IMG/VR virus record: IMGVR_UViG_3300035152_000011
Direction: 5' to 3' (one strand)
Source: a virus
Length of the DNA stretch: 64,000 bases
Shown here piece after piece: positions 19,728 through 21,170 of this stretch (position 1 is its first letter; every line of letters starts with the position of its first letter). The position numbers and the translations under genes are program-made. Below the pieces are notes generated by a model, which was not told where the DNA came from, ran no database searches, and worked only from the letters and a program-made list of their open reading frames with translations.

Positions 19728-21170
19728 CTAGTAGCCCCGGTTCGAGGTCGAGAATTCGATCAGGTATTGCAGGATGTGCTGCCGCAGCGAGTAGATGATG
19801 TACTCGTTGTGGTAGAGGTAGCTGCCCTTGCAGCCCATCACCGAGTCGTAGCCGCGCGGCGGCTTGGTGAGACTGGTCTGCGCGCTCTGGTACTTCTTGA
19901 TCTTCCCGAGCGCGACGTCAGCCACGAACATGAAGTACGTGCTGCCGCGACCGCGGCCTCCACCGAAGCGCCCGAACGAGTACTGTTCGCTCTTGCTCGC
20001 ACTGTCGGCGAAGTAGAGGCCGTTGCCGAACATGCTGCCAGTCACGTAGACGCCGGGCGGCCGCATCAAGAGGCCGTGCTTGCAGATACCGAGAATGTTC
20101 TGCGGGCCGGAGCCGTGGAACAGCGGCTTGACGTTGCCGACCTGTTTCATGGCCGGCGCGTGTTTCTTCTTCTGGCCGTTCACGCCGAGACGCCAGATGT
20201 TGGCGACGCGGCAGCTCCAGTGGTGGTTCGAGCCGCGTTGGCTTTGCACGTAGTCGTTGACGCGCTTCCAGCTCGGGTCGCTCTTGTCGAGCAGCTCATA
20301 GTCGCAGCCGATCTCCTGGTAGCGCTTCGCGGTGTCGCTGGTCGCGAACCCACTGACCAGTCCTTGCACGTCGCCGAGCAGGTCGAGCAGCTCTTGCTTG
20401 TCGTCGAGGATCTTGGCGTTGTTCAACGCCATCCCCTTGAGCCAGCGGTCCATCGCGCTTTTGCTCTGCGTCGGCCGTGGGCGCTTCTCCATGACCTGCG
20501 GGATCGCCGAGTAGAACTGGTTGGAGAGGTCGAGCAGCCGCCGGTCGATGGAATCGACGAGCGACGGGCTCTTCGCGAGTAGCGCCTGGACCTCGGCGAT
20601 GATGCGCTCACCTTCCTTGATCTGGGTGAGCGTCAGCGTGCCGAGCGGGTTCTTTGCGGTGGTGCTCAGCGTGCCGGAGAGCTGGGACCGAACGGCCTTG
20701 CCAGCTTCCGCGAAGAGCCGGTCTACCAGCTTGGCCGTCGCGGCCGCGAGCTGGAGCTTCGGCGCCTTCTTGTCACCGTCGGTCGCAGTGATCTTGTCTT
20801 TCTTCACATCGTCGGAGAGCACCTTCTGGTTGGCGACTGAGCTGCCGACTGCGGTCTGCGCGACCTGGACCTCGACGTAGCCCTTCCGCTTCGAGGTCTT
20901 CTCCTTCTTGAGCGAGTCGAAGGCCTCATCGAGCGCTGCGCGATTCTGGTCCGGCCAACGCTCTTCCTCGACGCCGTGGGCGCCGACGCGGCCGTAGCGC
21001 GAGTAGAGACGGTATTGGCTCTTGCCGTTGCCCTTCGAGACGTGCGCCTCGATCTGGTAGAATTTGTTGTTTCCACCAGTCAAGTCGCACTTGTTCAACG
21101 TCGCGACACGCACGACGTCGTAGTCGGACGGGAACGACCGCGTTCCGAATTTCTGGCTCTTGAGTTTCAC
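19728..21170 (-). CDS. Poly(ADP-ribose) polymerase-like protein with a WGR domain.
   Basis: WGR block KFYQIEAHVSKGNGKSQYRLYSRYGRVGAHG. PARP catalytic motifs LFHGSGPQNILGICKHGL (H-G-S), GNGLYFADSASKSEQY (Tyr) and YHNEYIIY (catalytic Glu). GTG start chosen for its GTGA overlap with the upstream stop. Confidence 0.75.
   Translation of the reverse strand: MKLKSQKFGTRSFPSDYDVVRVATLNKCDLTGGNNKFYQIEAHVSKGNGKSQYRLYSRYGRVGAHGVEEERWPDQNRAALDEAFDSLKKEKTSKRKGYVEVQVAQTAVGSSVANQKVLSDDVKKDKITATDGDKKAPKLQLAAATAKLVDRLFAEAGKAVRSQLSGTLSTTAKNPLGTLTLTQIKEGERIIAEVQALLAKSPSLVDSIDRRLLDLSNQFYSAIPQVMEKRPRPTQSKSAMDRWLKGMALNNAKILDDKQELLDLLGDVQGLVSGFATSDTAKRYQEIGCDYELLDKSDPSWKRVNDYVQSQRGSNHHWSCRVANIWRLGVNGQKKKHAPAMKQVGNVKPLFHGSGPQNILGICKHGLLMRPPGVYVTGSMFGNGLYFADSASKSEQYSFGRFGGGRGRGSTYFMFVADVALGKIKKYQSAQTSLTKPPRGYDSVMGCKGSYLYHNEYIIYSLRQHILQYLIEFSTSNRGY

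Follow-up and report, generated by a model that had tools for sequence, protein, structure and literature searches.

A gene on the minus strand of the virus record IMGVR_UViG_3300035152_000011 of IMG/VR (positions 19728..21170 of the 64,000-nucleotide stretch that we analysed, hereafter the window) encodes a protein of 480 amino acids (aa) in which a WGR domain, a helical regulatory domain (HD) and an ADP-ribosyltransferase (ART) catalytic domain follow one another. The product is a genuine ADP-ribosyltransferase of the PARP1-3 type, and its architecture leads to the prediction that it is activated by DNA breaks. The neighbour most consistently linked to this PARP is a winged-helix protein, which we call the partner, and not the Ku, ligase or family-X DNA polymerase (PolX) genes that the window also carries.

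The open reading frame (ORF) counted from its first ATG spans 19728-21293 (minus), and the gene of interest lies inside it. The original prediction had placed the functional start at the GTG at 21170, and several lines of evidence show this to be right: A Shine-Dalgarno sequence (GGAGAAG) is located 6 nt before the GTG; the GTG and the stop codon of the ORF upstream share a GTGA overlap; homologues 474-481 aa long have their N-terminus at the first residue of its product; and an independent gene call on another assembly/contig of the same element yields the same 480-aa protein. The upstream ORF (21167..21484, minus; 105 aa), which is translationally coupled to the PARP start, has no assigned function, and the only homologue found is in the relative of 80% identity (locus L008; the loci of relatives are denoted by such numbers). 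Between the PARP and its partner there is an ORF of 109 aa (19388..19717, minus), also without an assigned function, for which we found neither a family match nor a homologue at that position in the compared relatives. The GC content at third codon positions (GC3) of the PARP gene is 0.85 and fits the coding pattern of the adjacent genes. In a scan for promoters and terminators around the PARP operon, the sites were no commoner than in shuffled sequence.

Domains, fold and active site

The WGR domain (20865..21104, aa 23-102; Pfam PF05406, E = 1e-11, 45 bits with a cutoff of 22), the PARP regulatory domain (20364..20753, aa 140-269; PF02877, 7e-12, 46 bits with a cutoff of 26.8) and the ART domain (19746..20270, aa 301-475; PF00644, 2.9e-31 for the match over aa 301-447), all on the minus strand, scored above the Pfam gathering scores. 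The claim that a WGR domain is joined here to a PARP catalytic domain whose H-Y-E triad is intact is therefore borne out by Pfam, as it is by alignment to PARP1 and by the conservation of 122 homologues; and the helical regulatory domain, found in addition and absent from the original prediction, strengthens the domain assignment. The four strings quoted in that prediction were all recovered from the protein, i.e., KFYQIE...RYGRVGAHG at aa 36-66, LFHGSG... at aa 350-367, GNGLYFADSASKSEQY at aa 382-397 and YHNEYIIY at aa 453-460.

The codons of the triad, checked by translation, are at 20115-20117 (H352), 20013-20015 (Y386) and 19803-19805 (E456), on the minus strand. These three residues, together with K393, S394 and Y397, are invariant in the 122-sequence alignment. 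The motif from which the WGR domain takes its name reads Y59-G60-R61 in this protein, with G60 and R61 invariant among the homologues and position 59 occupied by Tyr in 118 of the 122 and by Phe in the other four.

Among sequences of solved structures, the best match was the WGR-CAT portion of human PARP1 (4dqy_C, E = 5.8e-32), followed by PARP2, PARP3, PARP4 and the tankyrases, and an E-value of this size excludes a chance match. The HMMER alignment to PARP1 equates H352 with the His of lwHGS (lfHGS in the phage protein), Y386 with the Tyr of GIYFAD, K393, S394 and Y397 with residues of SKSANY, and E456 with the Glu of YNEYIVY. A confident AlphaFold2 model built with 60 homologues (mean predicted local distance difference test score, pLDDT, 81.5; predicted template modelling score, pTM, 0.78) forms an all-helical bundle over aa 143-287 and is disordered at aa 105-137, 165-173 and 401-407, the first of these being the linker before the helical domain, where pLDDT is below 50. 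The best Foldseek matches of the model were PARP1 and PARP2 in complexes with DNA breaks (E about 1e-29), and the best superposition was again on 4dqy_C, which is human PARP1 in a complex with a DNA double-strand break (DSB; TMq 0.68, E 6e-29). From this superposition on PARP1/DSB complexes, taken with the domain architecture, we infer that the phage PARP would be activated by DNA breaks. Because the helical domain has been retained, its activity can be argued to be regulated rather than constitutive.

The kind of product is a separate matter. The original prediction had stated that H-Y-E PARPs make poly(ADP-ribose), which is too strong: PARP3 and PARP4 both carry the triad, and entries of the PDB label PARP4 a mono-ADP-ribosyltransferase. 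Vyas et al. in 2014 reportedly classed PARP3 and PARP4 alike as mono-transferases. As judged from sequence, the triad alone is not enough to predict a polymer and would be compatible with a single ADP-ribose unit as well. Nor does the protein appear to be an orthologue of PARP1, since it begins only 22 residues before the WGR domain and no zinc finger, BRCT or further Pfam domain was found in it.

The winged-helix partner

The partner gene (18636..19391, minus) encodes a tandem winged-helix protein of 251 aa, in which an N-terminal winged helix, a disordered linker and a second winged-helix-like domain are followed by an acidic disordered tail and the C-terminal peptide YDGSPTL. The second domain is marked by the motif FSAYDVT...EH...VH, whose invariant part is FSA-D-T...H, and in the closer relatives the C-terminal Y-D-G-x-x-x-L is invariant as well. 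Its synteny with the PARP is conserved: In L002-L012, L014 and L015, a homologue encoded on the strand of the PARP follows it at a distance of 0-2 kb, such that the pair is kept in 11 of 12 distinct loci (lineages), with L013 as the only one that lacks it. The partner is present in L015 even though the PARP of that locus is only 27% identical to the query. In distant loci, the partner has its two domains in reversed order and no tail. L002, L004, L005 and L011 have, between the genes for PARP and partner, one that encodes another conserved protein (131-175 aa) without a known domain.

Comparison of the partner with Pfam, NCBIfam and PADLOC (E limits of 0.001-0.01) assigned it to no family except for a sub-threshold match to the winged-helix family Penicillinase_R (Pfam, E 0.009), and comparison with PDB sequences gave nothing beyond weak winged-helix signals. 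The structural model is of medium confidence (pLDDT 66), and Foldseek returned only weak winged-helix matches for it, with E about 1e-2. A word-indexed database search with the partner retrieved just 8 proteins. Around the PARP genes of the phages Xanthomonas XacN1, Xoo-sp13 and Stenotrophomonas RAS14, the hidden Markov model of the partner found no match, and the megaplasmid PARP loci described below contain nothing partner-like, judging by their annotation.

The acidic tail and conserved end peptide recall, by analogy only, the protein-recruiting tails of single-strand-binding proteins. Given its consistent position, we regard the partner as the best candidate for a co-factor of the PARP or for an acceptor of ADP-ribose. 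The conserved partner gene thereby turns a vague annotation, that of a phage PARP, into a two-protein system that can be tested.

Size, conservation and phage setting of the PARP family

It had been claimed in the original prediction that PARPs are rarer in phages than in bacteria, where homologues are themselves sporadic. This applies to cultured phages, from which we obtained 16 matching records, but not to metagenomes: Among 5.8 billion proteins, a word-indexed search recovered no fewer than 200 clusters with 58-94% identity, which are about 475-480 aa long, have the same three domains and in many cases lie on contigs of 100-244 kb. When 1.84 billion representatives were searched exhaustively with HMMER, 109 clusters matched with E<=1e-30 and 1,862 with E<=1e-10. 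The family is thus abundant in metagenomes, and its strong conservation extends over hosts that differ widely in GC content. The relative loci that we fetched range from 36 to 63% GC, and their PARPs are 42-80% identical to the query; because identity is kept across this range of base composition, the pattern fits a vertically inherited gene that has been under long-term purifying selection in phages of very different hosts.

Outside of this uncultured family, relatives are distant. Scanning 185,579 GTDB reference genomes for the family-specific motif revealed no relatives. The 16 PARPs of cultured phages are 23-28% identical over most of the protein, and up to 34% identical where the catalytic domain alone aligns. 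The closest cultured relatives are proteins annotated as 'WGR domain-containing proteins' on bacterial megaplasmids of 360-816 kb, with 28-35% identity over 94-97% of the length. Two of these loci, on megaplasmids of Aneurinibacillus (L024, 722 kb) and of Bacillus thuringiensis Bt407 (L025, 502 kb), encode WGR-PARPs with 31-35% identity, which are slightly closer than any PARP of a cultured phage. The PARP of the Bt407 megaplasmid adjoins a pair of nucleotidyltransferase and SAVED-domain genes that resembles a CBASS system.

That the gene is encoded by a phage is well supported by its relatives, although the support is indirect in that the 64-kb window contains no virion structural gene. The window holds about 95 short genes, almost all on one strand and most without a known family; it contains no tRNA, and GenBank phages contain no near-identical DNA. 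The relatives of the PARP are on IMG/VR viral contigs of 106-210 kb, and several of them have rIIA/rIIB-like genes adjoining the PARP. Proteins of the window match PHROG families and phage genomes, i.e., the element shares genes with phages, and a 931-aa protein that neighbours the PARP in L011 matches only 'uncultured phage' (huge phage) records of 462-735 kb. Because a protein identical to the partner sits on a contig of 143 kb, the genome must be at least that large. Exact-protein look-ups past the edges of the window, directed at structural genes, gained only about 2 kb. The best explanation for these sequence data is that the PARP is a conserved non-structural gene of a large uncultured phage lineage.

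Repair genes around the PARP

The window encodes, apart from the PARP, a set of proteins for the healing and joining of DNA ends. A mini family-X DNA polymerase of 159 aa, consisting of palm and thumb (22033..22512, minus; Pfam DNA_pol_B_thumb 1.6e-11, palm 3e-4; NCBIfam PolX 4e-5), belongs to the gene run of the PARP, from which it is 0.9 kb upstream, and occupies the same position in L008. It retains the GDLD carboxylates, and the strand that would carry the third Asp reads LQVNLW (Asn) both here and in L008. In size this putative polymerase is similar to the Pol X of African swine fever virus (ASFV). Next to it is an ATP-dependent DNA ligase of the LigD type, i.e., of non-homologous end joining (NHEJ) (22572..23573, minus; Pfam DNA_ligase_A_M 1e-7; NCBIfam NHEJ_ligase_lig 8e-16, below cutoff), with a KYDG motif; its true start is likely to be at 23402, and the gene call on a related contig is of 276 aa. 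Ligase and polymerase together lie 0.9-2.4 kb upstream of the PARP in the window.

Three further members of the set are located elsewhere in the window, all on the minus strand. These are a stand-alone LigD 3'-phosphoesterase of 125 aa (33805..34182; Pfam LigD_N 2.7e-16; NCBIfam LigD_PE_dom 6e-19, below cutoff); a bacterial-type Ku with a Lys-rich C-terminal tail (40556..41488; Pfam Ku 1e-39; NCBIfam Ku_bact TIGR02772, 194.6 bits with a cutoff of 150), which shares about 31% identity with its counterpart in mycobacteriophage Omega; and a PNK-like P-loop kinase (47708..48175; NCBIfam Pnkp 6.5e-8, below cutoff). The kinase is placed in AAA_33 by way of its homologue in L009: The AAA_33 match (6e-14) was obtained from the ORF set of the window, and we assigned it to 47708-48175 because the L009 homologue carries that domain. 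A UvrD-like helicase, ThyX and a tyrosine recombinase are also encoded. No LigD primase-polymerase domain was found in the window, which has PolX instead; and there is no multidomain LigD, the ligase and the phosphoesterase being separate genes that score below the NCBIfam cutoffs. From sequence, the set reads as a split-up Ku/LigD kit for end joining and end healing in which PolX replaces the primase-polymerase, and which together with the PARP resembles the break-repair set of eukaryotes.

Among the relatives, L008 starts with an unannotated, truncated gene at the position that the ligase has in the window, and L006 (68% identity) has a ligase 2.5 kb upstream of its PARP. Single-protein scans of IMG/VR with the Ku and PolX of the window, which can detect only close relatives, found no match for co-occurrence with a PARP.

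Erasers and ADP-ribose-related neighbours

The absence of an eraser from the window, noted in the original prediction, was confirmed: Its approximately 108 ORFs include no Pfam match to Macro, PARG, ADP-ribosylglycohydrolase/ARH or NADAR. Genes of related function do adjoin the PARP in some relatives. In L002, a NADAR gene (11434-11955) begins at the stop codon of the PARP, directly downstream, and a YpsA/SLOG gene (8222-8701) lies upstream of it; in L004, L009 and L010, YpsA/SLOG is directly upstream of the PARP. What looked like a NADAR gene after the PARP of L005 was rejected as an artefact of out-of-frame ORF extensions that overlap the 3' end of the PARP.

Proposed role and alternative explanations

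The identity, fold, catalytic residues, conservation and synteny of the PARP were computed, whereas its DNA-dependent activation, targets, chain length and biological role are deduced from them. Our preferred explanation, to which we assign a probability of about 0.6, is that the protein is a minimal PARP2/PARP3-like enzyme that senses and signals breaks or free ends of the phage genome and coordinates phage-encoded end joining. Such a role appears likely because the PARP shares a gene run with the ligase and PolX, and because Ku, the phosphoesterase and the kinase are encoded in the same window. In this model, the WGR domain would bind a DNA nick or end; this binding would relieve the autoinhibition exerted by the helical domain; and the H-Y-E site, with NAD+ as substrate, would then attach ADP-ribose to the enzyme itself and to neighbouring proteins on phage DNA, the partner being the prime candidate. 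The outcome could be to manage ends and breaks of the phage genome, e.g., after injection or after attack by host nucleases. There is a precedent in the PARP of Herpetosiphon, an enzyme of the same architecture that depends on DNA and synthesises long chains in vitro (PMC4245714, PMC8120803). The more specific suggestions of the original prediction, that the PARP modifies Ku, ligase or PolX or that it depletes NAD+, are speculation.

Several observations weigh against this explanation. The tryptophan of 'WGR' is replaced by Tyr or Phe across the whole PARP family. In the phage PARP, the loop leading up to the catalytic Glu is about 27 residues shorter than that of PARP1, and the position of PARP1 Tyr986 is taken by an invariant His454; because of these two changes, the elongation and branching of polymers as performed by PARP1 cannot be assumed. 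(The loop that remains before Glu456 has the length of that in PARP4 and tankyrase, which align in a single stretch.) The 64-kb window, out of a genome of at least 143 kb, does not contain an eraser alongside the writer. The proximity of ligase and PolX is not family-wide: In L002, L004, L005 and L011 the PARP instead follows rIIA-rIIB, and within 10 kb of it there is no homologue of the ligase or PolX and no repair-enzyme Pfam domain. Finally, a search of the literature found no biochemical study of any phage PARP.

A bolder version of the proposal, which we consider doubtful, is that PARP and partner form a dedicated two-component module by which large phages of a widespread lineage sense and signal DNA ends. 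The partner would act as the main acceptor or as an HPF1-like or histone-like co-factor, and the module would direct a eukaryote-like repair kit of Ku, ligase, PolX, PNK-like kinase and 3'-phosphoesterase. If true, this would be the first case of ADP-ribose signalling that organises DNA repair in a bacterial virus, and possibly a view onto the origin of the partnership between PARP1-3 and NHEJ in eukaryotes.

An alternative explanation is that the gene serves host takeover, with the PARP acting like the T4 enzymes Alt, ModA and ModB to modify, early in infection, host proteins such as RNA polymerase, translation factors or defence proteins, DNA breaks being uninvolved. Iyer et al. proposed for the PARPs of jumbo phages an action like that of phage ARTs, except that chains are transferred (PMC7824862); in one subclade the PARP follows rIIA/rIIB, which are of the early type; and the YpsA/SLOG and NADAR genes that flank the PARP in some relatives belong to NAD/ADP-ribose-processing conflict networks (PMC9503650). 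However, an intact WGR domain with invariant G60 and R61, together with an autoinhibitory helical domain, is the architecture of a nucleic-acid-gated PARP and not that of a constitutive toxin-type ART. Moreover, the conserved partner is of a DNA-binding (winged-helix) type, and there was no match to PADLOC or other anti-defence families. We therefore think host takeover unlikely.

Less likely again is that the PARP modifies the termini of nucleic acids instead of proteins, such that phosphorylated phage ends or nicks are capped against host exonucleases or marked for end joining. PARP1-3 are able to ADP-ribosylate DNA ends in vitro, and the phage protein has a minimal architecture like that of PARP2/PARP3. 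The end-processing 3'-phosphoesterase, the PNK-like kinase, Ku and ligase encoded with it would be consistent with such a function. NADAR removes ADP-ribose from guanine bases in DNA, and the NADAR gene directly after the PARP in L002 could be viewed in the same way; but this adjacency is confined to one lineage, and no computation tells DNA acceptors from protein acceptors.

It is improbable that the PARP is an NAD+ sink, i.e., that when activated by DNA damage it consumes NAD+ to shut down the host or exclude superinfecting phages, in the manner of abortive infection. Hyperactive PARP1 does deplete NAD+ in eukaryotic cells, and neither an eraser nor an NAD+ salvage gene was seen in the window. 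Yet the depletion of NAD+ normally harms phage replication, the window shows no sign of toxin and immunity genes arranged together, and the PARP is vertically conserved within the phage lineage rather than being a mobile accessory gene. The last alternative, that the gene encodes a catalytically dead DNA-binding scaffold or is a chance ORF, has nothing in its favour and is effectively refuted by conservation, with catalytic and NAD+-binding residues invariant in 122 sequences, E-values down to 1e-31 and a GC3 as in the neighbouring genes.

Relation to known PARPs and end-joining systems

Should the PARP-repair link be functional, phages would employ ADP-ribose signalling to handle the ends of their genomes or to mend breaks inflicted by restriction or CRISPR nucleases, which would matter both for the biology of phage defence and for the question of how PARP-dependent repair originated; otherwise, the gene is one more annotated phage PARP. 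What gives this question weight is that Ku, ligase, PolX, kinase and phosphoesterase, all present in the window, represent the same activities that PARP1-3 coordinate in eukaryotes.

The phage PARP shares with human PARP2 and PARP3, and with the WGR-HD-ART core of PARP1, its order of domains, the H-Y-E triad and the K-S-x-x-Y site for NAD+, and its model superposes on PARP1/DSB and PARP2/HPF1/nucleosome-break structures at 22-28% identity. Unlike human PARP1-3, it lacks zinc fingers, BRCT and an N-terminal extension. It also differs from the human PARPs in having Y/F for W, a shortened loop and His in place of Y986, and it belongs to a prokaryotic virus, with no HPF1 or PARG present. The PARPs of bacteria (Herpetosiphon aurantiacus A9B244, Clostridioides difficile CD160 and those of Bacillales/Variovorax megaplasmids) are likewise of three domains or WGR+PARP, with H-Y-E; but those bacteria complement their PARPs with erasers (PARG or macrodomain) that are encoded at other sites of the genome, and the window has none.

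The PARPs of cultured and metagenomic jumbo phages are phage-encoded, have H-Y-E and match the full-length query. Those compared were from Xanthomonas XacN1 (BBA65562.1), Xoo-sp13, Stenotrophomonas RAS14/CM1, Klebsiella, Cellulophaga phi4:1, Aeromonas Aeh1 and the gut 'NAD-jumbo phages'; in contrast to the gene described here, none of them has been reported next to Ku, a LigD-type ligase or PolX. The PARP genes of phages Aeh1 and phi4:1 were reported in 2014 (PMC4245714) and those of jumbo phages such as XacN1 in 2021 (PMC7824862), and in 2024 PARPs of gut jumbo phages were annotated 'DNA damage sensor PARP1' and suggested to take part in the repair of phage DNA (PMC11662467). The extent and coherence of the uncultured PARP family, its winged-helix partner and the adjacency to a Ku/LigD/PolX kit appear to be unreported so far.

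With the Ku of mycobacteriophages Omega and Corndog and with bacterial Ku-LigD, the window has in common a phage bacterial-type Ku and LigD-derived ligase and phosphoesterase modules. It departs from bacterial Ku-LigD in that the functions of LigD are split, a mini PolX stands in for the primase-polymerase, and a PARP is added, a combination typical of break repair in eukaryotes.

Other genes of the window

Directly after the partner gene there is a TnpB/Cas12f-like gene of 531 aa (17025-18620, minus; PADLOC Cas12f 3e-34, Pfam Cas12f1-like_TNB 2e-4), beyond which about 1.3 kb of DNA (15700-17020) is poorly coding. Because it is absent at that position in L008, this gene is probably a recent insertion of the IS200/605 type. 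An FHA-domain protein (13620-14441, minus; 1e-14) and an adjoining protein of 651 aa (11660-13615, minus), for which no family could be detected, have been kept together in L008, about 5 kb downstream of the PARP.

Also encoded on the minus strand are two PAPS-reductase-like genes (28471-29571 and 49409-50905), a gene with a DFP/CoaBC-like flavoprotein domain (36455-37645) and a homologue of an L006 gene that matches an AcrVA2-like Pfam family (42931-44019), any of which may have functions in DNA modification or anti-defence. A tyrosine recombinase of the XerC/D/A type (6300-7490, minus; Phage_integrase 1e-17) occurs in what otherwise looks like a region of a large lytic phage, and it could serve in integration or in dimer resolution.

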